This document shows, piece by piece, positions 17,332 through 35,018 of a stretch of DNA of 64,000 nt. The notes beneath the pieces were generated by a model. The model did no database searches. It was not told the origin of the DNA and was given only the letters and a program-made list of their open reading frames with translations. The stretch is from the sequence record OR352958.1, one strand, 5' to 3'. The stretch is from Escherichia phage AV128. Position 1 is the stretch's first letter, and each line of letters starts with the position of its first letter. The translations under genes were made by a program, and so were the position numbers.

Positions 17332-17979
17332 TTATCCTGTGGCCTGCATATTGCGTACATACTTCTGCTCTAATGAATAGATGAAGTCGGCGACAGTCAA
17401 TCCCTTCGTGTGCCATTCATACATGGTGAAGCCTGTATTCAGGAAATAGCCGCGCACCTTGTCCATCGCTTCAGCTTCCTCCATTGAAGCCATCAGCGCG
17501 GCGACGTTGTCATAAGAAGGCACAAATCCCTTCTTGCGTAGCGCATTGCGCAAATCTTTAGTTCTGAAGCCAATCTTGCAAGGGTCATCACGACCAGTGG
17601 ATGATGCAACCTTTGGAAGAGCAAGGAACTCTTTAAGGAACATTGCAATGTTCAAGTCGCCTGCGTCATCAAGCTTCTGGATTCGGTTGCGACCGCGCCC
17701 CTTGAATTCACTCGCACGAGGGTGAGCGCCAAAACAGTGCGCCCCTTCCAGTTTAGGGTCGATGATCATTACATCTTTACCAATGCGAAGCTCTACGTAG
17801 TAAAGATAAGACTCATCGACAAGCTTTGTGCGCTTGCAAGTGATTGAGTCCTTATCATAACCAAAGCCGCGCAACACTGTTGAAATCATCCGGTTCATTT
17901 CTTCGCCGTGAACATCACTCTCTTTGTTCAGTTCACCAAGATGTTGAAAGAATTTAGCGATGTTGATTGCTTTATTCAT
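17332..17979 (-). CDS. hypothetical protein (215 aa)
   Basis: ORF immediately downstream of the helicase gene. Confidence 0.45.
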   Translation of the reverse strand: MNKAINIAKFFQHLGELNKESDVHGEEMNRMISTVLRGFGYDKDSITCKRTKLVDESYLYYVELRIGKDVMIIDPKLEGAHCFGAHPRASEFKGRGRNRIQKLDDAGDLNIAMFLKEFLALPKVASSTGRDDPCKIGFRTKDLRNALRKKGFVPSYDNVAALMASMEEAEAMDKVRGYFLNTGFTMYEWHTKGLTVADFIYSLEQKYVRNMQATG

Positions 17980-19649
17980 CAGAATTCATCCTTATCTCTT
18001 CCCAAAGAACGTTTACGCTCAATAACCTTCTTCAAGAATTCAATATCTTCAGGGTCAGACTCATCGCGGATAAGATACGCTAAGATGGTCATCAAATCAG
18101 AAATGTATTCACCTGCTTCATTCTTAATCAGCGGCGTAAAGTAACCACGCTGGTTGCGATAGGTTGCAGGCTCAAATCCAAGCTTCGACATGTGCGGCGC
18201 AAGGGTACGTGAGAAAGGCGACTTGCCACACTTAGCTCTGAATCCCATAGCGATTGCACCACTGGTAATGTGCCAGCGTCCGCTGTGATGTCGGTCATAA
18301 GGCGCGGTGATGACGACTTCAACAAGGTCGTTGTCGACCATCTCATCACGGATAACGCCGCGAGCACGTTCCATTTCGTTCTTGCTGAACTCAGTAAGCA
18401 TGCGAGACGTTTCACCAACAAAAGCGTTGTAACCTGCTTCGCCGTGTTTCTCCATCCACGCAGCACACTCAGCCATCAACTGCCAAACGTCTTCTTTCAA
18501 AGTGGAAAGGTCAGCTTGGAAGTCTTTAGACCAGTTCGGTTGCCCGTCCTTGTCAGCGAGTTGGCCAACAAAGATAGGGTAAACACGACGGTTGCCCGTA
18601 TCGTCACGCTGCATGCCTGCGTATTCGTTTCCGTCCATGATAGCAATCCACTGGCGTGGTTTAACCTGCGTATCTTCAAATTTGAAGTCCAGGTCATCTT
18701 CCGTCTTAGTCAGGAATGCTTTCATGTTTTCGATGTCAGCCTTTTTAAAGCCTGTCATCTCGCCAACGTTCGCGATAATTGAGCGACCAGTAATAGCTCG
18801 CAAGAACGGGTTGAAGTTCTGCGCGGCCAAGTTCAACGGAATCGGTGTTGCGTGGCGGTCGTTCATAATGGCTTCGCAAAGTAGCTTGCTAAAATAACTC
18901 TTCCCTGCGTTCTGGCCGCCGATGAGCGCAATGGAGATTGGCGCTTGACAGCCAGGGTTGGTCAGGCGGTTATAGAGCGATAGCCAAAAATACACACCGA
19001 TTTGTCGGTTTAACTCTGTATCGAACGGTCGGAATAGCTCGATAAGGTATTTCTCAATGCGCGCAGTACCGTCCCATTCAGGCAGCTTCTTGTAGAAGAA
19101 GTCCATCAGGTCGTCACGCTGATAACGCATGGCCCATTCCTTATAGGACTGAGCTACCTGACGTGAGTTTGGGTTGGACAGTCCTGCTGCGTCGACAGCG
19201 GCAACTATCTCTGTGACTTCCAACGTCCGGTCGGTGAATGTTTCGCCGCGATGGTCGACTAAGCGCCCACGAAAAGTATCTTTGTGAGGGAATGGAACAA
19301 CGCCGCTTCCCTTATCAAACAACGCGTCGAAAACCGCATAACGGTTCATGTCACTCGTCCGGTCCGCCTGAAGAACAAAATCATCTTTCGTCGGTTTGTA
19401 GTGAGGGAACTTGATTACCTGAAGTGAGGCGAGCAAACGTGCTCTTTCAACCAAGTCTTCTTCACCGTAGCATTCCATGCGCTCTGCATCTTTCTCAACA
19501 GCCTTGTGCTGGAGGCTGATTTTAGCTCTGGTGCCTTGCTGCTCTGCCGCTTGCATTTCTTCTGAAACACCAGCGTCTTGAATTTCGTCAAAGATTGCAC
19601 CAAATTCATCACCTGTATCCTCTGGAAGATTGTCATGTTCAATTGACAT
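17979..19649 (-). CDS. replicative helicase with Walker A P-loop (possibly D5/P4-type SF3)
   Basis: IALIGGQNAGKSYF Walker A; 556 aa; SF3 family assignment is a guess. Confidence 0.6.
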   Translation of the reverse strand: MSIEHDNLPEDTGDEFGAIFDEIQDAGVSEEMQAAEQQGTRAKISLQHKAVEKDAERMECYGEEDLVERARLLASLQVIKFPHYKPTKDDFVLQADRTSDMNRYAVFDALFDKGSGVVPFPHKDTFRGRLVDHRGETFTDRTLEVTEIVAAVDAAGLSNPNSRQVAQSYKEWAMRYQRDDLMDFFYKKLPEWDGTARIEKYLIELFRPFDTELNRQIGVYFWLSLYNRLTNPGCQAPISIALIGGQNAGKSYFSKLLCEAIMNDRHATPIPLNLAAQNFNPFLRAITGRSIIANVGEMTGFKKADIENMKAFLTKTEDDLDFKFEDTQVKPRQWIAIMDGNEYAGMQRDDTGNRRVYPIFVGQLADKDGQPNWSKDFQADLSTLKEDVWQLMAECAAWMEKHGEAGYNAFVGETSRMLTEFSKNEMERARGVIRDEMVDNDLVEVVITAPYDRHHSGRWHITSGAIAMGFRAKCGKSPFSRTLAPHMSKLGFEPATYRNQRGYFTPLIKNEAGEYISDLMTILAYLIRDESDPEDIEFLKKVIERKRSLGRDKDEF

Positions 19650-20959: not shown

Positions 20960-22042
20960 CTATTTTATGCCACCTGCACGACGATTTATCATGTCAAGTT
21001 GATTCTCAATATAAGGCATGACGATTGCTTCAACAAAAGCAGTCCAACCTTTCTTGCCTTCCCCTTTACGGTGACAGTCGTGGGCGCAACCGAACACAAA
21101 CTCATGCTCTGCACCAGGGATAGGGCCGCGAAAGTACGCGCCATACGGGTCGCCGTTGGTGTGCTCTTCACCCCAAGGACAGATTATGCGGCACTTGCCT
21201 GACATGTTCTCGATGACGTCGCCATCAGACCCTTCACCCATCTTGTTGCGCGCAAGAATTTGCTGGGCTATCTTATACCAAACAGCATCGTACTTGTATT
21301 CATCGACGTCAATTTGAATCTCACGCTTTTGCGGCATTACAACGTGAAAGCCGAACGCCTGACAGATGTCTTCGATGGTGTAGCGCAAGGAGTAGTCTGC
21401 ATGGACAAGTCGGCAGCGAAACGGGTCGCCGTTCTCATCGACATATTTATAGGGGCCGTCGTGAGTCACACGCTTATTGTTGATGCACCCAGGAACACGG
21501 CCCACGCGCGTTACGTCTTTAATCGTGTTGTCGCCGCCCTTCTTGAGTACCATGTTAACGAAAGACCCAAGGAACGCTTTGAACTGAATAAGATGGTCAA
21601 TCGGTTCTTTAAAGAAGTACCACAGCTGGTGGTTGTTCGGTGATGTCTCGACGATGACAGTCGGCTTCAGTCGCTCGAAAAAGAATTCCAAATCTAAATC
21701 GCCTTTGGACCCTTTACCGTGGCCGATGTCGTCGACCATCATCGCCATACCGTGACCAAAGGCCGACTCTGTACGCCAGTATCGCATCTCACCCGTCTTT
21801 GGGTTGGGAGACTTACGCATTGAACTGATGCACGCATAGCCGTTTTGGTGCTGCATGAGCGGCTTGCCCAACTTCCAAGGCTTAGGCCAGAAGCTGCTGT
21901 TGATCTTCTTGCCGCGCTCGTCGGTCTGTACCGTTGCTTCAGGAGCAAACACCGTCATGACGCGCTCATCTTCTGGGATTCCTCTTTGGAGTTCTGTTAA
22001 AAACTCTTCAATTATTTTTGCTTCTTCTCTTAAACTAGCCAT
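20960..22042 (-). CDS. putative primase-polymerase (archaeo-eukaryotic primase-like) with C-terminal Cys/His cluster
   Basis: hhhDD-like MAMMVDDIG and SxxNxHxxW-like ETSPNNHQLWYFF motifs; GAAGGAAAG RBS. Confidence 0.45.
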   Translation of the reverse strand: MASLREEAKIIEEFLTELQRGIPEDERVMTVFAPEATVQTDERGKKINSSFWPKPWKLGKPLMQHQNGYACISSMRKSPNPKTGEMRYWRTESAFGHGMAMMVDDIGHGKGSKGDLDLEFFFERLKPTVIVETSPNNHQLWYFFKEPIDHLIQFKAFLGSFVNMVLKKGGDNTIKDVTRVGRVPGCINNKRVTHDGPYKYVDENGDPFRCRLVHADYSLRYTIEDICQAFGFHVVMPQKREIQIDVDEYKYDAVWYKIAQQILARNKMGEGSDGDVIENMSGKCRIICPWGEEHTNGDPYGAYFRGPIPGAEHEFVFGCAHDCHRKGEGKKGWTAFVEAIVMPYIENQLDMINRRAGGIK

Positions 22043-22202: not shown

Positions 22203-22529
22203 ATGAACGAAAAAGAGACGAAGCAACGCGAACGTGCAACACACGTCGGAATCGTTGAGTCCTTCCTTAATACAAGATTGAATTCAAGCCTAACAATCAT
22301 GCGATTCCTGGGTCAACCAGACAGAATCAAATTTATTTTTGCCGCAAATCCGGTATCGCTGTACATCCCTGTTGAATCCATGGCGTACTTAGTGCGCGAC
22401 GAGAAAGGATGGAAGATACCAAACACAACTGTTTTCTTCAGCCATGTTGATGGTGAGATGTTTGAACGAAAAGAAGATTGCCATTTTATTCCAGTATATC
22501 TGGACCTTGAAAGCGTAGTGGAGTTATAA
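22203..22529 (+). CDS. hypothetical protein
   Basis: First plus-strand ORF after divergent region 22043-22202. Confidence 0.45.
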   Translation: MNEKETKQRERATHVGIVESFLNTRLNSSLTIMRFLGQPDRIKFIFAANPVSLYIPVESMAYLVRDEKGWKIPNTTVFFSHVDGEMFERKEDCHFIPVYLDLESVVEL

Positions 22530-23713
22530 TGAACATTCCAGAATTTAATGATGAGCCAGTGATTCAGTTTAACGCGCAACAAATCGATGCCATCGAGAAG
22601 GCCGTTGCATGGTACAAGCGATTGCAGGACGGTAAAACGACGAAGCGTGTGTTTTTCATTGCTGGCTATGCAGGGACTGGTAAAACCTCTATTGCTCGCG
22701 AGATTGTGCGCCGCTGTGTCGGTGAGTACGGCGCTATCTATATTGCGCCGACCGGAAAGGCTGCAAGCCGATTAAAGCAAAAAGGCTGTCGTGGCGCTAA
22801 GACCCTTCACCAGTTCATCTATAACGTGCGCGGCGTAAATGACGACAATGAGCCAATCTTTTCGAGAAAGTCAAAGCTGGATGAAAGGCCGCACCTTGTT
22901 GTACTCGATGAAGCGTCGATGGTTGGCGAGTGGGACACAGAGCGTCTTCTTGATCACCGCATCCCTGTGCTGGCATTAGGCGACATTGGACAAGTCCCTC
23001 CGGTAAAAGCCGCCGCCTACTTTACTGAAGAAGCTGTTGACGTTCTGTTAACAGAAATCATGCGGCAGGGGAAAGAGTCCAACATCATCCGTGCCTCCTT
23101 CTTCGTGCGCCAAGGCAACCGCCTTCCTCCGCGTGAATACGATGACGTCAAAGTATTGGCAGAATCGCCGCGCGTTACTGCGTTGAAGAAATTCATGGGC
23201 GAAGATGATCAAATTATTTGCTCCTATAATAGCACCAAAGACAAATGGAATTCATTATTACGGCAAGTGAGCGGACGTATAACGCCAATGCCAGGAATCG
23301 GCGAGAAGGTTATTTGCACCTTCAACCAACACGGCCCAGGATTCTGTAATGGCGAGCAAGGGATTGTTATTAGCTATGAGCCAGTGCCGGACTTTGAAAG
23401 GGACGAAGACGAGTCCAATGAAATCATGTATGTCAATTTGCGCTCGCTTACCGATGGCAAAGATATAAAGGTTAAGATTAATCCTCTTTCCTTCTCTACT
23501 GATCAGGAAGTGCGCAAAGAGGCCCAACGCGCTGTTGGAGGCATGGACTATGGCTATGTCATCACGGTGCACAAATCGCAAGGCAGCGAGTGGGACAATG
23601 TGTGCGTGCTGGAAGAAATCCTGCGCGGCGTTCCGTACTCCAAGATGATGTACACCGCTATCACCCGTGCTAAGAAGAATCTGACCGTGTACCGTGATTT
23701 GAAAGCGCGTTAA
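22529..23713 (+). CDS. Dda/RecD-like SF1 DNA helicase
   Basis: Walker A GYAGTGKT, Walker B VLDEASM, C-terminal TVHKSQGSEWD motif. Confidence 0.75.
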   Translation: MNIPEFNDEPVIQFNAQQIDAIEKAVAWYKRLQDGKTTKRVFFIAGYAGTGKTSIAREIVRRCVGEYGAIYIAPTGKAASRLKQKGCRGAKTLHQFIYNVRGVNDDNEPIFSRKSKLDERPHLVVLDEASMVGEWDTERLLDHRIPVLALGDIGQVPPVKAAAYFTEEAVDVLLTEIMRQGKESNIIRASFFVRQGNRLPPREYDDVKVLAESPRVTALKKFMGEDDQIICSYNSTKDKWNSLLRQVSGRITPMPGIGEKVICTFNQHGPGFCNGEQGIVISYEPVPDFERDEDESNEIMYVNLRSLTDGKDIKVKINPLSFSTDQEVRKEAQRAVGGMDYGYVITVHKSQGSEWDNVCVLEEILRGVPYSKMMYTAITRAKKNLTVYRDLKAR

Positions 23714-23872
23714 TGTTGACGTAAATTTACGAAAAATAAAACTGAAAATCAGTTTAATTAAAGTGGCATTGCCGCCATAGTTTTTAGTTGCTACTGGCGG
23801 CGACTGAAGGCATAATTAAGTTATCCCAAACGGGGAATATAAAATAAACTAATTTATTTAAGGACTGTGAAT

Positions 23873-24712
23873 ATGGCCGAAGCAATCAAAGTATTATCTA
23901 AAGAAGAAAAACAAGCAGCCGCAGCAGAACGTCGTCGCGTGGCTGAAGAAAAACGCCTGGCTAAAAAGAAAGAAGCCGAAGAAAAACGCCAGAAGCGTGA
24001 GCAGGAAAAACAAGCCAAGCGTGAAGAAGCCGCGCTGAAGCGCAAACAGGCTGCTGATGAGAAGGCTCAGAAGCGTGCTGAAGAAGCAGCTAAGAAAGCT
24101 AAAGAGCGTGCAGAAAAGGCTGCTGCTAAGAAAGCAGAGCGTGAAGCCGCTAAAGCAGCAAAAGAAATCGAAAAGGCAAAGGCCAAAGAAGAAGCCAAGC
24201 GCCTGAAAGCTGAACAAGCTGCTGCTAAGAAAGCAGAGCGTGATCAAGCCCGTGCTGCAGCAAAGGCCGAAAAAGAGAAGGCTAAAGAAGAAGCGAAAGC
24301 GAAACGCAAGGCAGAGCGTGAAGCTGCTAAGATCGCGGCGAAAGAAGCTGCAGAACAGCAAAAAGAACAGCGTAAGAAAGAAGCTGAAGAACGTCGCAAA
24401 GCCATCGCAGAGCGCAAGGCTGCCAAAAAGGCAAACGGTCAGCGCCGTGCAAAAGCTACTCACTTCATCTACACTGGCAACGGCCTGAGCCAGCCGCAGG
24501 AGCACTCCACCCGTGGGCGCGTTCTGGCGGCGATCAAAGAAGGCGAAGTTGGCGTGGCGCAGTCTATCGATGAGCTGGGCGAGAAAGTTAAAGATCAACT
24601 GTTTGGCGCTTCCGTTCGCTCCTACCTGAGCAAGCTGGAAGAGATGGGCCACATCGAGTTTGTCGATGTTGAATCCAACGACGATGCCGAAGACGGTGAT
24701 CAAGCGGAATAA
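23873..24712 (+). CDS. Lys/Glu/Ala-rich coiled-coil protein with globular C-terminal domain
   Basis: About 200 aa of KEA low-complexity repeats; about 100-bp tandem duplication in DNA; AAGGA RBS; track start 23867 is GTG. Confidence 0.6.
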   Translation: MAEAIKVLSKEEKQAAAAERRRVAEEKRLAKKKEAEEKRQKREQEKQAKREEAALKRKQAADEKAQKRAEEAAKKAKERAEKAAAKKAEREAAKAAKEIEKAKAKEEAKRLKAEQAAAKKAERDQARAAAKAEKEKAKEEAKAKRKAEREAAKIAAKEAAEQQKEQRKKEAEERRKAIAERKAAKKANGQRRAKATHFIYTGNGLSQPQEHSTRGRVLAAIKEGEVGVAQSIDELGEKVKDQLFGASVRSYLSKLEEMGHIEFVDVESNDDAEDGDQAE

Positions 24713-24846: not shown

Positions 24847-25842
24847 ATGAACATGAAACAACCTGTAATGATTATCGGCGGCGGTTTGGCAGGACTTATT
24901 ACCGCGTGTCACTTCCCGAACTCTATTGTGTACGAAGCAGGGGAACGAGCGCAACAGCACAAGGCGCTGCTACGCTTTCGCGGCGAAGAAGTAAGCCGTA
25001 TTACCGGAATCCCTTTTAAGGCCGTGACAGTTGACAAGGCTGTGTATTTTCGCGGCAACTACTACCACGACCATTGCCCAATCAACCTTGCCAATATGTA
25101 TTCCATGAAGGTCACCAATCAGTTTGGCAGCCGTTCAATCATGAAGCTTAAAACTGCAACGCGTTATATTGCGCCTGATGACTTTTATGATCAGCTTGTC
25201 GACAAACTGGGTGACCGCATATTCTTTAATACTCCGGTAGATACTCTTTGCGGCTATAGCGAGACGCCAATCATCAACACGTCGCCGCTGCCAGTCATGA
25301 TGAAGCTGGCTGGGATTGATCAAAAGCTTGATTTCTCATTCGATAAAGCAAACATTCGTGTTTACCGCTTTAAGATTAAACGTAAGTGTGATTTGTATCA
25401 GACAATTTACTTCCCTGACTACTCCGTCAGAACTTATCGCGCATCAATTACTGGTGACACGCTTATCATTGAAACAATTCCTTTGGTCAGCGTGAGTGAA
25501 GCTGCAGTTGAAGCCGCTGGCGGCATCACTCGTTACCGTGACATGAAGCTGCGCGCAGAAGTCGACGAAGTGTTGACAGCCTTTGGCCTCTCATGGAGTG
25601 ACATTGCTCTTGAAGAAGTTGAAAAGGTCGACCAGAAATATGGCAAGATTGTCGACATTCCGAAAGACTTGCGACACGCCCTACTCCTGCAGCTGACTAT
25701 GGATTTGAACGTGTTCAGTGTCGGTCGATTTGCTACCTGGCGCAACATTTTGCTTGATGACGTTGCCCATGACCTTGTTGAAGTTGAAAAACTCATCAAA
25801 GCAAATAACTATCAAAAATTTGCTTATATTGCTAATAAATAA
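24847..25842 (+). CDS. FAD/NAD(P)-binding oxidoreductase
   Basis: N-terminal Rossmann dinucleotide motif MIIGGGLAGL; 331 aa; start 24847 or 24853. Confidence 0.6.
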   Translation: MNMKQPVMIIGGGLAGLITACHFPNSIVYEAGERAQQHKALLRFRGEEVSRITGIPFKAVTVDKAVYFRGNYYHDHCPINLANMYSMKVTNQFGSRSIMKLKTATRYIAPDDFYDQLVDKLGDRIFFNTPVDTLCGYSETPIINTSPLPVMMKLAGIDQKLDFSFDKANIRVYRFKIKRKCDLYQTIYFPDYSVRTYRASITGDTLIIETIPLVSVSEAAVEAAGGITRYRDMKLRAEVDEVLTAFGLSWSDIALEEVEKVDQKYGKIVDIPKDLRHALLLQLTMDLNVFSVGRFATWRNILLDDVAHDLVEVEKLIKANNYQKFAYIANK

Positions 25843-26367: not shown

Positions 26368-27171
26368 ATGAAAGTTGAATTAATTCGATACACCCAAGAT
26401 GCACTTGACCTTTTGCTGGAAACAAAGAACACGCGCATGACTGGTAAGCCTGTCTCTGAGATGACGGAATCAGAGAAGCAAGAGCATTGGCGCTACATGC
26501 TTGATACAATCAAGTCTCCTTTTGACTTTGTGGACTATATCTTTGATATCACAGCTGTATCAAAGAACATGACCCATCAGATGGTACGCACACGCACAGG
26601 CGCATATCAAGAACGCACCAGCCGCGCTCAGGAGTCGTCTGCATTTGATGCGATTCGTCCTGCTAAATTCACTTACCCAGAGGATGATCCAAAGGGATGG
26701 ACTCGCCATGACGAGAAGGCCGCTGAACTGGCAGAGAAGTGGGATGATGCGATGGCGACTATCGATGCTTTGTATCAAGAGCTTCGCGCGGCTGGCGCAG
26801 AGATTCAAGATGCACGTGCCGTATTGCCTTCTAATATGCAAACGCATATCATGGCAAAGTTCAACTTGCGCACGCTGCAGCAGATGGCGTCAAACCGCTT
26901 GTGCACGCGCACGCAAGGAGAGTATCAAGAAGTATTCCGCGCAATGGTTGCGGAAGTCCTCAAGGTGCACCCTTGGGCGAATCCATTACTGCAGCCGCAA
27001 TGCATTGGTATGGGTAAGTGCGCATTTCCTCGTCACGGTAAAGCCCATTGCCCTTGGTATCGTGATTGGATGGATACCACGGCACAGCAAGAAGAGTTGC
27101 GCATCCAGTTTTGGAGTGCGATGCCAATCACCAACAATCCAGTTGCTAAAGATGGAGTATCAAAAGGATGA
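26368..27171 (+). CDS. thyX: ThyX-like flavin-dependent thymidylate synthase homolog (divergent)
   Basis: Segment VRTRTGAYQERTSR resembles ThyX RHR-x7-S-x-R motif with H replaced by T; ARAVLPSN...NLRTL block also ThyX-like. Confidence 0.6.
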   Translation: MKVELIRYTQDALDLLLETKNTRMTGKPVSEMTESEKQEHWRYMLDTIKSPFDFVDYIFDITAVSKNMTHQMVRTRTGAYQERTSRAQESSAFDAIRPAKFTYPEDDPKGWTRHDEKAAELAEKWDDAMATIDALYQELRAAGAEIQDARAVLPSNMQTHIMAKFNLRTLQQMASNRLCTRTQGEYQEVFRAMVAEVLKVHPWANPLLQPQCIGMGKCAFPRHGKAHCPWYRDWMDTTAQQEELRIQFWSAMPITNNPVAKDGVSKG

Positions 27172-28040
27172 GCATTAAAAACAGCGAAATCTTAAACGTA
27201 TTCGACCTTGACGGAACGCTGTTTGATGACCGTTGGCGCTTAGACCGCATCAAGGTGGCAGGTCCGTTGTCAGACTATGATGATTATCACAGCGGTATTG
27301 GTTATGATCAGTTCTATCCTCACATTGCATCAGCAGTAGAGTCGGCATCTCTTCGCGGTGAGGCGGTTGAATATTGGACTGCAAGGCCAGAAAAATACAG
27401 ACAAGTGACTTTTGAACGTCTGGACAATGTTTTTCCTTTTGATGAATTTACAATCAAGATGAGAGACTATGGCGACAAACGTCCATCAACTATTATGAAA
27501 TCTGCATGGCTATCGCACGCATTGCGGCACGGCGATTATCGAATCATCAATGTATTCGACGACCGACAAGACGTACTCGCGCGGATGCAAGATGAAGCAT
27601 TGTATTATAATTCCGTTGCTCAAAATAAAATCTCTTTTACATTTAATCTTTGCAAGGCAGGTGAAGTGGTGCAACAATTAGCAATTGATCCAAGCGCAAC
27701 AGGGCAAGAAGAGACTAAGGCTGTGGAAGTTGAACAATCTCCGGCAACTGCCGCCGATATTCTTGATGCAATGGCAGCAACCTTCCGTGAGCGCAACGCT
27801 GTCTATGGCGATAACGCTGTGATGGTAGGTCAGGTTATGCAAGTGCTTTTCCCTAATGGCGTGACGTTGAAAACGCCGGAAGACTACCACATGTGGCATC
27901 TGTTCGAACTTAAGATTGTCAAGCTTACACGCTTCGCAATCAGCGGCCTGAAGCACGAAGACTCTATACACGATGATGGTGTTTACAGCGCCATGTGTGA
28001 ACGTCTTGTTAACACCCATAATATTAATTTCAATAAATAG
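27168..28040 (+). CDS. HAD-superfamily phosphatase-like protein with extra C-terminal domain
   Basis: VFDLDGTL motif I and VFDDRQDV motif IV-like; C-terminal 120 aa unassigned. Confidence 0.55.
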   Translation: MSIKNSEILNVFDLDGTLFDDRWRLDRIKVAGPLSDYDDYHSGIGYDQFYPHIASAVESASLRGEAVEYWTARPEKYRQVTFERLDNVFPFDEFTIKMRDYGDKRPSTIMKSAWLSHALRHGDYRIINVFDDRQDVLARMQDEALYYNSVAQNKISFTFNLCKAGEVVQQLAIDPSATGQEETKAVEVEQSPATAADILDAMAATFRERNAVYGDNAVMVGQVMQVLFPNGVTLKTPEDYHMWHLFELKIVKLTRFAISGLKHEDSIHDDGVYSAMCERLVNTHNINFNK

Positions 28041-28105: not shown

Positions 28106-28789
28106 ATGAAAAAAGTAATTGTTGTAACTGGCTGCAATTCCGGTCTTGGTAAATCCATTTTTGACACCCTTGGCGCTTACGGTCATGAAGTTGTCGGTAT
28201 TGATTTGGAGAACGGCTATGACATCCGTAACGCGAAACAGATGAAAGAGCTTCTCTCTCAATACGACGTAGAAGGCTTGATCAACTGCGCTGGCGTCAAC
28301 TCCAACAACTGGTTCGAAGATGTTAACTACGAAGAGTTCAATCGCGTTATGCACACCAACGCCTTCTCTTTCGTCAACACGACTCAGGCCGCGCTGAAAA
28401 GTCTTATTGACAACAAAGGTTTTGTGATCAACATCGTTTCCAACGCTGCGCATATTCCTATGACGTCCAGCTTGTGTTATAATGCTTCCAAGGCTGCTGC
28501 GCTCATGATTAGCAAGCAGATGGCTCACGAGCTTACGCCTAAATACGGGATCACGGTATTCTCTATTAGTCCTAACAAGCTACGTGGTACTGGCATGTCC
28601 AAACAGATTGAAGATGCTGTTTGCGCGACTCGCGGCTGGACTCCTGAGTATGCTGCTGAATACCAGAAAAAGGCGTTGATGAATGGATTGGAGACTGAGC
28701 CGCAAGTAATTGCTGACTTCATTCGACATATCTTAATTACGGGCGCATGGCGCTTTATGTCTGGCACTGATATTCCATTTGGTAAATAA
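28106..28789 (+). CDS. short-chain dehydrogenase/reductase (SDR) family oxidoreductase
   Basis: VTGCNSGLGKS cofactor-binding motif and YNASK catalytic motif. Confidence 0.7.
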   Translation: MKKVIVVTGCNSGLGKSIFDTLGAYGHEVVGIDLENGYDIRNAKQMKELLSQYDVEGLINCAGVNSNNWFEDVNYEEFNRVMHTNAFSFVNTTQAALKSLIDNKGFVINIVSNAAHIPMTSSLCYNASKAAALMISKQMAHELTPKYGITVFSISPNKLRGTGMSKQIEDAVCATRGWTPEYAAEYQKKALMNGLETEPQVIADFIRHILITGAWRFMSGTDIPFGK

Positions 28790-28885: not shown

Positions 28886-29437
28886 ATGCCACATTTTAAA
28901 ATTGAACAAATCGCCCTGTCAATTCCAGATGCTCAGCGCGCACAGGATTTCTTGGCTAAAATTGGTCTGACAGAGTGGTTCCATGATCACGTTGTTGCTA
29001 CTGGTCGCGTATTTGAAGCTGATGAATTCAAAGGTCAGCGTGGATATTGCACCAATGAAGCTGACTTGCGCTTCAATTATCAAGCTGGAAACGGAACTGA
29101 TGGCGGCGCTGGTAAGCCTCTTGAGCTTGAAATCCTTGACTACACAAAGGGGTGTAACTGGATCAGCGAAAACATTGAAATGCTCGATGCGCACGACAAT
29201 CAGGTTAGCCATCTTGGTATGCACGTGACTGCCGCTGAACTTGCTGAATGGCGCAAGTTCTTTAAAGAAGAAGGCATTCAGGTTGCGCAGGAAGTTGTGA
29301 CCGGCTCTCACACCAACCCAAACATTGCTGGTCAGCGTCGTTACAACTATGTGATCTTTGATACGCGTGAAATCATTGGTGTTGACCTTAAGTTCATCGT
29401 GCGGTTGAATCAAGACGGTACTCCGTACACTGTATAA
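28886..29437 (+). CDS. possible glyoxalase/VOC-fold protein
   Basis: N-terminal pattern loosely resembling VOC fold; weak assignment. Confidence 0.35.
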   Translation: MPHFKIEQIALSIPDAQRAQDFLAKIGLTEWFHDHVVATGRVFEADEFKGQRGYCTNEADLRFNYQAGNGTDGGAGKPLELEILDYTKGCNWISENIEMLDAHDNQVSHLGMHVTAAELAEWRKFFKEEGIQVAQEVVTGSHTNPNIAGQRRYNYVIFDTREIIGVDLKFIVRLNQDGTPYTV

Positions 29438-29453
29438 CGAATCGTGAATCTGT

Positions 29454-29478
29454 GGCCGTCCTAATGGGCGGCCTTTTT
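29454..29478 (+). terminator. Rho-independent terminator
   Basis: Stem ggccgtcc/gggcggcc (one G-U), loop taat, T5 tail. Confidence 0.6.
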
Positions 29479-29491
29479 GTAGGAGGCCAAT

Positions 29492-30034
29492 GTGTTATTT
29501 CTCCCTTATGACTTCGAAACAACCGGATTAACCGTGCACCCGAAAGCGCCGCTTGGGATGCAGCCGCGCCCTATTGAATTTGCAGGCCTGTTGACGGACG
29601 GCAAAGAGATTCTTGAAACGTTCGAGTTCATAATTAATCCTGAAATTGTGATTGAAGAAATCATCACAAAGATTACCGGATTAACAAATGAAGACCTTGA
29701 GTGCAATCCACCATTCATCCATTTCGTTCCGCAACTAAAAGAAATATTCAAGAAGACGGATGCAACTATAGCGCACAACCATGCGTTTGATAAAAACATT
29801 CTTGACTATGCATTACAGCGCGAAGGTCTTACACTTGGTGATGTTAATTTTCCAGAAATAAACATTTGTACAGTAGAGCAAACCTTGCCTATTTTTGGCC
29901 GAAGAGTTAAGCTTCAAGAGCTGTATGAATTATATTTCGGAAAATATGAACAGAAACACCGTGCATTAGACGACGTAATATTGCTGCACAAAGTTTGCCA
30001 ACAAATTGGCGTATATGACATCTGGAGCAAATAA
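29492..30034 (+). CDS. DnaQ-like 3'-5' proofreading exonuclease (DEDDh)
   Basis: Exo motifs DFETTG, HNHAFD, HRALDD; GTG start with AGGAGG RBS. Confidence 0.75.
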   Translation: MLFLPYDFETTGLTVHPKAPLGMQPRPIEFAGLLTDGKEILETFEFIINPEIVIEEIITKITGLTNEDLECNPPFIHFVPQLKEIFKKTDATIAHNHAFDKNILDYALQREGLTLGDVNFPEINICTVEQTLPIFGRRVKLQELYELYFGKYEQKHRALDDVILLHKVCQQIGVYDIWSK

Positions 30035-30188
30035 TATGTGGATTCTATTAATATTGGCAATCGGTGGCACAACCATTTCGCCACATCCAATTGAGTTCAA
30101 ATCACAAAATGCTTGTGAAATTGCAAAGGAAAAGGTTGAACGTAATTCTTCAAGCTATACAAATGTAATTTGCGTATCAAAGGAATAA
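30035..30188 (+). CDS. small hydrophobic N-terminus protein (51 aa)
   Basis: ATG at 30035 with GGAG upstream; track ORF starts 30006. Confidence 0.3.
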
Positions 30189-30191
30189 CAT

Positions 30192-33089
30192 ATGTTTCCA
30201 CAATTGAGAGTTCGCAGCGGTTACACGTTCAAAGAAGTATATGGACGGCATCCTGAAATTATAGCACGGCTCAAAGAGTTGGGCTGCGAAGTCGCGGCAT
30301 TAGTTGATAACAATACATGGGGTCACGTCCGATGGGAAAAGGAATGTCAGAAGAATGATATCAAGCCTGTGTTCGGCATGGAGATTCCAATCATCGACCC
30401 TGATGCAGACCCGAAAAAGGGATTCAAACCGAAGGCTTGGATATTGGCTCTTGACCTGAAATCCTTTTACAATGCGACCACGCTTGCAACACAACGCGGC
30501 GGACTGACCCGTGCAGAGTTCGGGGCGCTCGATGGAGTCATTAAATTCTGTGGCGGTGCCGTGGAGTTGCTGCGACCAGAGGACTACGATTATATAGACG
30601 TCAACCCATCATCGTTCCTTTTGGCCAAGCGCCAGGTATTGGCTCACCGCAGCAACGGAAGGCCGCTTGTTTTAACCGGATACAACCACATGCCTTCACC
30701 TGCGCACGTTGACTTTGCTTATGCTTGGGAAGTTCGCGACACGGTTAAGCCGCACTGCATCGTTGACGCGGAAGACTTGCGCAAACAGCTTAAAGGAATC
30801 CTGACCGAAGATGAGTTGAATCAAGCAACGGCCAATGCGGTTGACATTGCAAACGGAATCGTGGGACTTGACCTGAAGCTGCGCAAGGCACCGATTATCC
30901 ACCTTGCTGGTGACATGGTAAAACTTGCTCGCGAGGGGATGGAGTACCGCCTTAAGGCAGGTCACATCAAAGAATGGACTCAGGAATATGAGGACCGATT
31001 CAACGAAGAGATTCACCAGATTCAGCTGAAAGATTTCGACTCATACTTTCTGGTGGTAGCGGACCTTGTTCGATTCGCAAAAACAAAAATGCTCGTCGGA
31101 CCCGCTCGCGGCTCATCGGCTGGTTCACTGGTTTGTTATTGCCTCGGCATCACGGAAGTCGACCCAATCCCGTATAAGCTGCTATTTGCCCGATTCATCG
31201 ACGTAAGCCGCGCCGACCTTCCTGATATTGATATTGACTTTGAGGATACCAAACGCTATATGGTGTTTGATTACCTTAAAGAAAAATACGGCGAAATGAA
31301 CGTTGCAAAGCTTGGCAACATCAACACGCTTAAGGCCAACTCAGTAATGGCTCAGGTTGGTAAGAAGTTCAACATTGGCTATCACGAAACGGCCAACATT
31401 AAAAACGCATTGCTTGAATACTCATCCGGTGACGCCCGTTATGGTCACGGCCTGGAGGATACCTTTGCAACAACGACCACGGGTCAAGAGTTCGTGGCGA
31501 AATATCCTGATGCCGCGCGTTGCATGGGCGACCTTGAGATTCACCCGTCCCACACAGGGGTGCACGCAGCGGGAATCATTGTGTGTAATGACCCAATCTC
31601 TGATTACTGTACTGTAACTGCAGAAGGGATTGCGCAAATCGATAAGCCTGACAGCGAATACCTTAACCTTTTGAAGCTTGATGCACTGGGCCTTCGTACT
31701 CTCGGCATTATTTCTGATACAGGCGTTATTGATGCTGAAACGCTTTACGGAATCAAGCTTGATGATCAAAGCGTACTTGACATTCTTAACGAAAACAAGA
31801 TGTCAGGCATCTTCCAGTTTGAAGGTGACGCTGTACGCTCAGTAACAAACTTTGTGCACGTCGACAACTTTAACAAAATCGACAACCTGACAGCTTTGGG
31901 TCGACCTGGCCCGTTGTCATCCGGTATGGCCCAGAAATACATTGAACGCGCGGCAGGGCGTGCGCCGATTGAATACGACGTGCCGCAGCTTGAGCCGTAC
32001 TTAAAAGAGACTTACGGAGTGTTTCTTTACCAAGAGCAAATCATGGCCGTGGTTAAAGAGATTGGTTCATTTGACTGGGCGAAAACGTCCGCTGTACGTA
32101 AGGCAATGTCAGGCCGTAAGGGTGAGGAATACTTCAACAAGCTTGGCGAGGACTTCGTTGCAGGCGCAATAAATAACGGCGTACCGGAAGCGGATGCAAG
32201 AAAGCTTTGGCAAGCAATGGCTACGTTCGGGTCATGGGGCTTTAACAAGTCGCACTCCGTGTCATACGCGGTCGTGACCTACTGGACATTGTGGCTTAAG
32301 CGACACTACCCGTTGGAATTTGCCGCTGCCTGCTTACGCGCTGCTAAGGACGAAGACCAGACGATTGCGATATTACGTGAACTTGCGAAGGAAGGCGTGG
32401 ATTACGTTCCAATCGACCCTGATCACTCTTCAATGAACTGGACAATCGCGAACGGAAAGCTAATCGGCGGCATTATGAACGCGAAAGGGTACGGAATGGT
32501 GAAGGCGATGAAGTACATCGAAGCGCGTGAAGCCGGAACCTTAACGCAGAAGCAAAAGGACGCATTGGCCAATGCTGAAGTAAAATATGGCGACCTTACA
32601 GAGATGCACACAAAGTTCGGCTGGGCGTATAATGACCCGTATCTGATTGGTGTGACGTCCGGCGCTTCAATACGCCAGATGAAGGAAGTCGGTGATGACG
32701 AGCGCGCAATAGTAATCGGCAAGTTGACAAAGAAAGTGCTTGCGGACGAGAACGAAGCAACACGCATCCGTAAACGACTTGAGCGCGGCATCTATACAAA
32801 GCACGGCAAGCTTAAAAAGGGTCTTCAAGCTGATGGCCGCTACGCAGAGTTTGACCAGTACGGGAACAAGCTTGAGACTCAGTTCATCGACCTTATGTGC
32901 AAAGACGACTCGACCGACTCGCCAATGCGCTTCAGGATTCGTCCAGAGAAGTTCCAGAAGTACGGGAAGTACATCGCTGAAAACGTCGGGAACGGCGCAT
33001 TCTTCCTGATGAAAGGTCGTAAGCTTGAAGGCATTGACATGTTCATCGTTGACGTGATCAAACAGGTGTATCCAGATGGCAACAAATAA
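30192..33089 (+). CDS. dnaE: DNA polymerase III alpha-like replicase (DnaE family, PHP domain), short form
   Basis: Blocks GPARGSSAGSLVCY, PDIDIDF, RPGPLSSGM, FGSWGFNKSHSVSYA match conserved DnaE motifs; 965 aa. Confidence 0.9.
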   Translation: MFPQLRVRSGYTFKEVYGRHPEIIARLKELGCEVAALVDNNTWGHVRWEKECQKNDIKPVFGMEIPIIDPDADPKKGFKPKAWILALDLKSFYNATTLATQRGGLTRAEFGALDGVIKFCGGAVELLRPEDYDYIDVNPSSFLLAKRQVLAHRSNGRPLVLTGYNHMPSPAHVDFAYAWEVRDTVKPHCIVDAEDLRKQLKGILTEDELNQATANAVDIANGIVGLDLKLRKAPIIHLAGDMVKLAREGMEYRLKAGHIKEWTQEYEDRFNEEIHQIQLKDFDSYFLVVADLVRFAKTKMLVGPARGSSAGSLVCYCLGITEVDPIPYKLLFARFIDVSRADLPDIDIDFEDTKRYMVFDYLKEKYGEMNVAKLGNINTLKANSVMAQVGKKFNIGYHETANIKNALLEYSSGDARYGHGLEDTFATTTTGQEFVAKYPDAARCMGDLEIHPSHTGVHAAGIIVCNDPISDYCTVTAEGIAQIDKPDSEYLNLLKLDALGLRTLGIISDTGVIDAETLYGIKLDDQSVLDILNENKMSGIFQFEGDAVRSVTNFVHVDNFNKIDNLTALGRPGPLSSGMAQKYIERAAGRAPIEYDVPQLEPYLKETYGVFLYQEQIMAVVKEIGSFDWAKTSAVRKAMSGRKGEEYFNKLGEDFVAGAINNGVPEADARKLWQAMATFGSWGFNKSHSVSYAVVTYWTLWLKRHYPLEFAAACLRAAKDEDQTIAILRELAKEGVDYVPIDPDHSSMNWTIANGKLIGGIMNAKGYGMVKAMKYIEAREAGTLTQKQKDALANAEVKYGDLTEMHTKFGWAYNDPYLIGVTSGASIRQMKEVGDDERAIVIGKLTKKVLADENEATRIRKRLERGIYTKHGKLKKGLQADGRYAEFDQYGNKLETQFIDLMCKDDSTDSPMRFRIRPEKFQKYGKYIAENVGNGAFFLMKGRKLEGIDMFIVDVIKQVYPDGNK

Positions 33090-33498
33090 CCGTGAGCAGA
33101 AATACATATTCGTGCCTTTGAAGAAGCATTCAGAATCGGTATTGAAGCTTCAACGAATCGAGTCGATGACTGGTGATGGCGTGCCGGACGTAATCGGCAC
33201 CAACCGGAAAGGGCGCGGCTTTTGGCTTGAAATGAAGTTCTTTGAATCGTGGCCTGCAAGGGCCACCACTGCACCTTTCAGAAATGCATTTGAGAAAGGT
33301 CAATGCAGCTTTCTTTCTTCTTGGAATGATTGGAGATACCCATCATTCGTTTTGCTTAAGGTTGATTCTGAGAAGATGTTTTATTTAGTCCACCCTTCGA
33401 TTGAATTAAAGCGTTATAATACTGCAGACGTTCAACGTGAGATAATCGTGAAGGGAACTATTCATCACATCATCAAGTATTTAGAGGAATTGTCATGA
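33076..33498 (+). CDS. PD-(D/E)XK nuclease (VRR-NUC-like)
   Basis: GVPDVIG...GFWLEMKF resembles PD...E.K catalytic core; next to SNF2 helicase. Confidence 0.5.
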   Translation: MATNNREQKYIFVPLKKHSESVLKLQRIESMTGDGVPDVIGTNRKGRGFWLEMKFFESWPARATTAPFRNAFEKGQCSFLSSWNDWRYPSFVLLKVDSEKMFYLVHPSIELKRYNTADVQREIIVKGTIHHIIKYLEELS

Positions 33499-35018
33499 AA
33501 ACACAAGGGATGCGCCACCAATTATTGGCGCTTGATAAAGCAGGCCGCAGAAAATACTTTGCTTATTTTATGGAGCAGGGCCTTGGCAAAACCTGGACTG
33601 CTTTGGCAGAGTTTGAAAAGCACTTCACCGCTGGCGCGTTTGATGCCATGGTTGTTATCGCTCCAAACGGTGTACACTCAAACTGGATTCGTCGTGAAGC
33701 GCCAGAGCACCTTTCCATCAAGTGGATTGGGCATTACTGGCGCGGCAATGACAAGATGAAGACTAAAAAGGGCAAGGCGCTTTGGGAGAAGATGTTTGCT
33801 GATCACTACCCTGAAGGCGAAGTGCCTGCGCGCATCTTCTCATTCAACATTGACACCGTCAACACACCAGTCGGTTATCAACACATTGAGTCGGTCTTGA
33901 AGAAATACCGCTGTTTGATGATCATTGATGAATCGACGCGTATCAAAAATAACACAGCCAAACGCTCCATCAAGGTTGTAGAATTGGGACGGCTGGCAAA
34001 GGCCCGTCGAATCCTTTCTGGTACGCCGCTGCCACGCTCGCCTGCTGATATTTACATGCAATATCACTTCCTTGAGGCCGGCTTGCTTGGCACCAAATCG
34101 TTCCGTGCATTCAACTCTGAATTCACAGTGCTACTTGAAGCGCACGACCCAGAGATGCAGGCCATTCTCAAGAAAATCGGCGGCAACGGTTATGGCATTC
34201 CGCAAGTGCCGCGCAAAGACCAGTTTGGCCGACCGATGTACAAAAACCTTGACAAGCTTATCCGGCTGATGGAGCCGCACTATTTCCGCGCGACAAAAGC
34301 GGAATACCTGCCGGACCTTCCAGAGAAGGTGTACAAGTTTATCGACTTCGAGTTGTCGCCTAAGCAGCGCGATGTCTATGATGAACTCAAGAATGAGTAC
34401 AACTATCTGATGGAGTATAAAGGAGAAGAAGAAAACGTTAAGTTTGAGATGATCGCATCTCGCACTAAGATGAAGCAGGTGACATCAGGCTTTGTTAAGG
34501 TGTATGATGAGATGGTCTACATGGAAGATAACCCACGATTCACGGCCTTTAAGGATTATGTGGAAGGGGTGTTGGAAGATGACCCAGAGCGCAAATTCAT
34601 TGTGTGGGCCATCTTTAAGGAAGAGATGAACCAGATTAAGGATTGGCTTGAGTCTGAAGGCGTGGTCACTGGTGTATATAACGGTGAAACATCAAAAGAG
34701 CAGCGCGAGTTCTTGATTGATGACTTCCAGAAGAACACAGTTGAGAACGGTGGAACGCAAGTCTTAGTTTGTCACGCTGCAGCGGCAGGCATCGGAATCA
34801 CGCTTACCGCCGCCGACTTGGCAATCTATTATTCTTGCAACTATGACAACGAGCTGCGCAAGCAATCCGAAGACCGAAATCACCGCATCGGCACCAAATC
34901 AAGTGTGTTGTATGTTGATTTTATTGGTGTTGATACCATCGATGAAGAAATTCAGCGATCACTAAGCATGAAATCTATGCTTGCTGATCACATCCTCGAC
35001 GGCAAAAAGATGAATTAA
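33495..35018 (+). CDS. SNF2-family helicase/ATPase
   Basis: Motif I QGLGKT, motif II IIDESTRIKN, motif III SGTPL, motif VI QSEDRNHRIG. Confidence 0.8.
   Translation: MKTQGMRHQLLALDKAGRRKYFAYFMEQGLGKTWTALAEFEKHFTAGAFDAMVVIAPNGVHSNWIRREAPEHLSIKWIGHYWRGNDKMKTKKGKALWEKMFADHYPEGEVPARIFSFNIDTVNTPVGYQHIESVLKKYRCLMIIDESTRIKNNTAKRSIKVVELGRLAKARRILSGTPLPRSPADIYMQYHFLEAGLLGTKSFRAFNSEFTVLLEAHDPEMQAILKKIGGNGYGIPQVPRKDQFGRPMYKNLDKLIRLMEPHYFRATKAEYLPDLPEKVYKFIDFELSPKQRDVYDELKNEYNYLMEYKGEEENVKFEMIASRTKMKQVTSGFVKVYDEMVYMEDNPRFTAFKDYVEGVLEDDPERKFIVWAIFKEEMNQIKDWLESEGVVTGVYNGETSKEQREFLIDDFQKNTVENGGTQVLVCHAAAAGIGITLTAADLAIYYSCNYDNELRKQSEDRNHRIGTKSSVLYVDFIGVDTIDEEIQRSLSMKSMLADHILDGKKMN

Follow-up and report, generated by a model that had tools for sequence, protein, structure and literature searches.

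The stretch of DNA analysed here (the window) comprises 64,000 nucleotides of Escherichia phage AV128 (sequence record OR352958.1), and our subject is a block of four + strand genes at positions 29,492 to 35,018, which encode a DnaE-type DNA polymerase, a separate DnaQ-like exonuclease, a small PD-(D/E)XK nuclease and a SNF2-family protein. With a probability that we put at roughly 85%, this block is the conserved replication operon of a lytic myovirus of the Wifcevirus/Pbunavirus type. The replication module is real, ordinary and already published, and as a discovery it matters little, since dozens of GenBank records annotate it and at least two papers describe it. A scan of open reading frames (ORFs) returned the four genes, all on the + strand, at 29492-30034 (180 aa), 30192-33089 (965 aa), 33076-33498 (140 aa) and 33495-35018 (507 aa), exactly where an earlier note on this DNA, made from the letters alone, had placed them. 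That note had recognised in them a DnaE-like polymerase, a separate proofreader gene initiated at GTG, a PD-(D/E)XK nuclease and a SNF2 helicase, together with a helicase (17979-19649) and a primase-like gene (20960-22042) on the opposite strand, and each of these identifications stood up to the searches described below. Altogether, its interpretation is partly supported, being largely right with two corrections: an OB domain is retained in the predicted structure of the polymerase, and the replicase is not demonstrably self-contained.

The close relatives of the region speak for a conserved operon. In megablast searches the region matched 35 phage records, 28 of which cover at least 80% of the query, and among the listed matches with this coverage Bas98, vB_EcoM_SP13, F13, vB_Eco4M-7, ECML-117, FEC19 and WFH showed identities of 94-96%; Wifcevirus is the genus of the Escherichia phages matched in this way. 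Bas98, vB_Eco4M-7, F13 and others share 96% DNA identity over 97% of the region (95% for ECML-117) and their annotations agree, with the labels 'DNA polymerase III alpha subunit', 'DEDDH exonuclease / DNA polymerase exonuclease subunit' and 'DNA helicase'. At the protein level, identity of the polymerase by tblastn goes from 99.7% in FEC19 to 66% in Serratia MyoSmar and about 58% in Pbunavirus, and in many actinophages and Bacillus phages the core domains match, at ~24-37% identity. The remark of the earlier note that such a replicase is unlike those of most tailed phages is true, yet the same search found polymerase matches in 1,413 of 50,697 phage records. Gene order is shared with DP1, a phage of the sister genus Pbunavirus, where ThyX and PNK precede the 184-aa exonuclease and the 1036-aa polymerase, and a 136-aa 'DNA helicase' and a 519-aa SNF2 protein come next, with an overlap at every junction among the last four. 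The genes of the module are likewise tightly packed or overlapping in the window, where the nuclease gene shares 14 nt with the end of the polymerase gene and 4 nt (ATGA) with the beginning of the SNF2 gene, and all junctions overlap in the relatives.

The polymerase (30192-33089, +, 965 aa) is a C-family enzyme of the DnaE type, similar to the alpha subunit of Pol III. Pfam models revealed DNA_pol3_alpha (3e-63), DNA_pol3_finger (1e-37) and a borderline PHP domain (6.9e-06), residues 240-798 aligned to E. coli alpha 290-872 with E ~1e-84 (phmmer against the PDB), and a profile of 54 sequences aligned positions 5-789 to E. coli alpha 2-857 with a probability of 100. All 54 homologues keep the catalytic residues D345, D347 and D497, whose E. 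coli counterparts are D401, D403 and D555. All the hallmarks of a DnaE-type C-family polymerase were found, namely a palm of the Pol-beta-like nucleotidyltransferase type with three Asp residues, an N-terminal PHP domain, the fingers and overall fold of alpha, and a C-terminal OB fold, which follow each other in the order degenerate PHP, palm/thumb/fingers, HhH and OB; the score against the NCBIfam model of the C-family superfamily lies above its cutoff (TIGR00594, 476 vs 434 bits). In the PHP domain, the HxH of motif I is replaced by R6-V-R8 (R6 in 51 and R8 in 50 of the 54 sequences) and motif II has a variable residue in place of its His; by analogy with E. coli alpha, we infer that this domain should neither bind metals nor proofread.

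A different role for this enzyme would be that of a repair or translesion polymerase of the DnaE2/ImuC kind, with the host Pol III copying the phage genome. Enzymes of the DnaE2 type likewise lack a proofreading PHP domain, and the NCBIfam model of the error-prone polymerase does give 333 bits, against a cutoff of 939; the DnaE1 models, however, score higher (497 and 476 bits), a dedicated proofreader gene flanks the polymerase gene, and the module includes a primase, helicases, ThyX and PNK, to which an annotated DNA ligase is added in Bas98. Moreover, no ImuA or ImuB partner was seen, and this is the sole polymerase annotated in the Bas98 genome. We regard a translesion role as very improbable, and infer that the polymerase is the replicative enzyme of the phage.

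The C-terminus of the polymerase was identified by fold comparison alone, after sequence methods had given nothing: neither Pfam at E<=10, nor a PDB profile search, nor hhalign against E. coli alpha 851-1160 returned a match. In the AlphaFold model of the protein (pLDDT 86.7), the HhH is followed by a first strand (beta1, 838-852), a helix with a basic loop (853-896), beta2 (897-904), beta3 (912-916), a second helix (918-931), beta4 (937-944) and beta5 (950-959), and the protein stops at residue 965, six residues beyond the last strand of the OB fold. According to this model the C-terminal OB fold is retained and, since the protein ends straight after it, there is no counterpart of the tau-binding domain that E. 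coli alpha has at residues ~1079-1160. The expectation of the earlier note that the enzyme probably lacks its C-terminal domains therefore holds for the tau-binding domain, and a QxxLF clamp motif was not found either, but the OB domain has to be taken off the list of losses. In this regard, a regular-expression search for clamp-binding motifs (QL[SD]LF / QxxLxF type), which in a control recovered QADMF and QVELEF of E. coli alpha and QTSMAF of epsilon, found none in the exonuclease and none in the polymerase, where a non-canonical motif is possible; in the latter it returned QEQIM at 614 alone, the conserved finger motif that compares with QEQVM at 687 in E. coli. As for the OB fold itself, a Lys/Arg-rich insertion lies between its beta1 and beta2 (residues ~853-896, window 32748-32879); most of the family shares the core motif ENEAIRIKKRGGK, with an insertion ~20 residues shorter than that of this phage and its closest relatives.

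The polymerase falls 195 aa short of the length of E. coli alpha and the next ORF overlaps its stop codon, which could suggest that a frameshift, or an error in sequencing or assembly, truncated the gene and left the missing C-terminal domains encoded downstream, a way out that the earlier note had also contemplated. The lengths of the homologues say otherwise: 120 listed homologues measure 871-1232 aa, mostly 930-1000 aa, and many of them come from complete-length contigs of 66-74 kb, so that 965 aa is a family trait and not an error. The FEC19 protein, as already said, is nearly identical, the model of the polymerase finishes in a complete OB fold, and the downstream ORF encodes an unrelated and complete nuclease fold of the RecU/Hjc type with an invariant active site of its own. 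A length conserved across the family and a downstream protein that folds on its own already refute truncation, to which we leave practically no probability. The homologues include the family members P0121 and P0103, and some members reach 1215-1232 aa; an intein-splicing domain (PF14890) is present in P0121, so inteins have invaded the phage polymerase in some lineages.

The gene that precedes the polymerase (29492-30034, +, 180 aa) encodes a DnaQ/epsilon-like DEDDh 3′-5′ exonuclease reduced to its catalytic domain, which matches Pfam RNase_T (1.6e-21; 77.9 bits vs a cutoff of 24) and phrog_192, 'DNA polymerase exonuclease subunit' (1.9e-37). The motifs ExoI (DxE), ExoII (D) and ExoIII (HxxxxD) are present, and their residues D7, E9, D100, H156 and D161 are shared with E. 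coli epsilon and with the Pbunavirus homologue. Its GTG is the first start codon after the in-frame stop, lies 4 nt 3′ of an AGGAGG Shine-Dalgarno sequence (29482-29487) and stands 6 codons 5′ of the DxE of ExoI, which makes it the only start that preserves the active site; the Bas98 gene is annotated with the same GTG. The protein ends at a position equivalent to residue ~186 of E. coli epsilon, where the catalytic domain of epsilon ends. Among NCBIfam models, its best similarities are to the DEDD exonuclease-domain model NF005906 (66.9 bits) and to PolC models (63.6 and 62.1 bits), with a DinG-associated model lower in the list, all of them far below their cutoffs, and the dnaQ_proteo equivalog gives 43.6 bits vs a cutoff of 222.7. 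Proofreading in trans by this separate exonuclease is plausible from its sequence, because the PHP domain of the polymerase, as argued above, is predicted to be unable to do it.

Several elements were observed just upstream of the exonuclease gene. A terminator-like, GC-rich hairpin found by pattern match (29454-29473, +; 8 pairs, 7 of them G-C) reads GGCCGTCC-TAAT-GGGCGGCC and is followed by TTTTT; it ends 8 nt 5′ of the Shine-Dalgarno sequence of the exonuclease and its sequence is kept in Bas98. A second possible hairpin (29470-29488) would pair AGGAGG with the 3′ arm of the terminator and the T-tract, the two structures being mutually exclusive. Further upstream, on the same strand, are the genes of a FabG-like short-chain dehydrogenase (SDR; 28106-28789, adh_short 1e-31) and, immediately before the exonuclease region, of a 183-aa protein with a weak glyoxalase-like match (28886-29437). 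In virion preparations of vB_Eco4M-7, mass spectrometry identified the homologue of the latter, a 'glyoxalase family protein' (PMC7048862).

Between the exonuclease and polymerase genes, a 157-bp insertion (window 30035-30191) bears a 50-aa ORF (30036-30188, +) of sequence MWILLILAIGGTTISPHP..., with a hydrophobic N-terminus and two Cys residues, which the earlier note had overlooked in this gap. The protein falls in phrog_5579 (9.9e-10). Neither tblastn nor blastn found a match for the insertion or its ORF in 50,697 GenBank phage records, and Bas98 lacks the ORF, the exonuclease stop overlapping the polymerase start there. The exact 50-aa protein is carried by 16 Logan contigs, and on the 6 of them that were listed it sits at the same position. 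A small ORF has thus been gained, in an uncultured Wifcevirus lineage, inside an exonuclease-polymerase junction that is otherwise translationally coupled.

Downstream of the polymerase, the 140-aa protein (33076-33498, +) is a RecU/Hjc-like PD-(D/E)XK nuclease and a putative resolvase of Holliday junctions or branched DNA. No Pfam or NCBIfam model matched it, the Pfam families RecU, Hjc and VRR_NUC included, and among 62 members of its family there were just one weak RecU match (0.0011) and one weak VRR_NUC match (0.0055). An exhaustive HMMER search gave 319 relatives at E <=0.001, and among the 150 listed, stand-alone proteins of ~130-150 aa predominate. In an alignment of 62 homologues E29, D38, E52, K54 and Q76 are invariant, which reproduces the catalytic E...(P)D...(D/E)xK pattern on an alpha-beta-beta-beta-alpha-beta core, and the confident model of the protein (pLDDT 94.4) has a predicted fold that matches RecU and Hjc, restriction enzymes scoring <=7.1 in the same comparison. 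These invariant residues and the matching fold make the PD-(D/E)XK call right, and with the model in hand it can be sharpened to a resolvase-type nuclease with a predicted cleavage of junctions. This corrects a widespread mislabel, as the resolvase-like protein is called 'DNA helicase' through phrog_2165 of PHROGs and in many records. A QKYIF sequence at its N-terminus (residues 8-12) was considered as a QxxLF clamp motif, being invariant in the five closest sequences, and was rejected, since among 62 diverse homologues only E7 is near-invariant, the I and F positions vary and the segment is part of the first helix.

The last gene of the block (33495-35018, +, 507 aa) encodes a SNF2-family ATPase/translocase with both lobes present (SNF2-rel_dom 8.6e-22, 78 bits vs a cutoff of 24.9; Helicase_C 5.8e-11, 43.1 vs 23.5), which also matches phrog_62 (2.1e-106). 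The nuclease and the SNF2 protein could in principle form a module for the degradation of host DNA or against host defences, instead of acting as replication or recombination factors, a reading that we find improbable. A nuclease match occurs in 374 phage records, and in most of 30 sampled the homologue adjoins or overlaps the polymerase gene.

Other replication genes surround the block. On the opposite strand, the protein encoded at 17979-19649 is a VapE-like/DUF5906 P-loop protein (VapE-like_dom 1.6e-28; phrog_4630 4.2e-255; phrog_256 'DNA helicase' 8e-36), an SF3-type helicase similar to D5 and SaPI Rep, and likely both the initiator and the replicative helicase; its Pbunavirus homologue has been described as a SaPI-like self-loading helicase (PMC12390725). 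The same strand carries, at 20960-22042, an AEP-type primase (RepB_primase N-terminal domain 4.5e-36; phrog_4861 'DNA primase' 9.3e-198). A Dda/RecD-like SF1B helicase (22529-23713; AAA_30 1.3e-22, UvrD_C_2 6.2e-13; phrog_325 'Dda-like helicase' 4e-99), ThyX (26368-27171) and a PNK-like phosphatase (27168-28040) are encoded on the + strand. In the replication and nucleotide-metabolism block there are also two conserved + strand proteins of 281 aa (23867-24712, phrog_4765) and 331 aa (24847-25842, phrog_4828), for which a search for a hidden clamp or accessory factor returned only PHROGs of unknown function, with no Pfam match and no significant sequence match in the PDB. Since no clamp, clamp loader or single-stranded DNA-binding protein is annotated in the genome of Bas98, the closest relative, the description of this replicase as self-contained in the earlier note was overstated. 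The window gave no Rfam matches at gathering thresholds and no tRNAs.

Previous work offers a similar panorama. Phage C-family polymerases were catalogued by Kazlauskas et al. in 2016 (PMC4889955), and a 2025 paper on Banzai (PMC12390725) reports for the Pbunavirus module homologues of Pol III alpha (a polymerase) and epsilon (a 3′-5′ exonuclease), a primase and a ligase, two helicases (one SaPI-like and self-loading, the other Dda-like), a Holliday junction resolvase and an Ino80/CHD1L-like translocase. Wifcevirus phages of the BASEL collection were isolated on K-12 derivatives, and a very fast reported cycle was noted for them in a paper that does not discuss the polymerase (PMC11990801); a 2026 survey of bacterial polymerases in Nucleic Acids Research does not treat phage DnaE.

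Taken as a replication operon, the module suggests a simple scheme. The DnaE-type polymerase would copy the phage genome while the separate exonuclease proofreads in trans, with the AEP primase and the SF3-type helicase of the opposite strand priming and unwinding, and the Dda-like helicase in an accessory role. Before packaging, the SNF2 motor and the resolvase may jointly process branched DNA, such as stalled or regressed forks, recombination intermediates and the branches of concatemers. The canonical contacts for clamp binding, tau binding and the epsilon tail are all missing from the polymerase-exonuclease pair and, as the exonuclease has neither a clamp motif nor an alpha-binding segment, its contact with the polymerase cannot be of the bacterial kind. 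A tentative proposal, which we hold to be rather unlikely as a whole, is that the pair makes up a minimal C-family replicase which needs no sliding clamp for its processivity and whose proofreader is held by contacts different from those in bacterial Pol III. Processivity of this sort might come, for example, from the basic insertion of the OB domain or from coupling to the SF3 helicase and, if true, a clamp-independent replicase might contribute to the reported very short infection cycle of Wifcevirus (PMC7048862; PMC11990801). In this line, the precise domain map obtained for this compact C-family polymerase of a phage makes it possible to ask, in testable form, whether processivity can be clamp-independent and whether polymerase and proofreader make a non-canonical contact, and this mechanistic interest in processivity and in the attachment of the proofreader is real but modest.

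Some points weigh against this interpretation of the module. The polymerase failed every cutoff of the bacterial DnaE equivalogs (496.8 vs 1002 bits for PRK05673, DnaE1), and the assignment of its OB fold depends on a predicted structure; sequence comparisons of the C-terminal 181 residues with the PDB and with the C-terminus of E. coli alpha found no relative. The complex between polymerase and exonuclease is assumed, from adjacent genes whose stop and start codons overlap in relatives, for a proofreader that lacks the alpha-binding tail of epsilon. Moreover, the 281-aa or the 331-aa protein could be an unrecognised replication accessory factor, and the functions of the module proteins are predicted ones. 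With these points counted, a conserved replication operon is still the reading we prefer.

Compared with known systems, the phage polymerase has a shorter PHP domain and a shorter linker to the OB than E. coli alpha (DnaE1), in which a tau-binding domain follows the OB fold; no equivalent was found in the phage enzyme of the internal (QADMF) and C-terminal clamp-binding motifs of alpha, and its OB has a basic insertion and no sequence similarity to the bacterial one. E. coli epsilon shares the DEDDh residues and a catalytic domain of ~180 aa with the phage exonuclease, which is missing the clamp motif of epsilon (QTSMAF) and the C-terminal segment of ~55 aa that tethers it to the PHP domain of alpha. 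At the sequence level, the 140-aa nuclease is 13-16% identical to RecU of Bacillus, archaeal Hjc and VRR-NUC. Among phages, the exonuclease starts with GTG in Wifcevirus and with ATG in the Pbunavirus DP1, and the additional ORF of 50 codons that separates the exonuclease gene from the polymerase gene sets the present lineage apart from its published relatives. In spite of such differences, Pbunavirus phages of Pseudomonas (PB1, DP1 and Banzai) and Wifcevirus isolates (vB_Eco4M-7, ECML-117, WFH and Bas98-101) keep the same order, ThyX-PNK-...-exo-pol-nuclease-SNF2, and the published descriptions of the module agree with the one found here (PMC7048862, PMC12390725).

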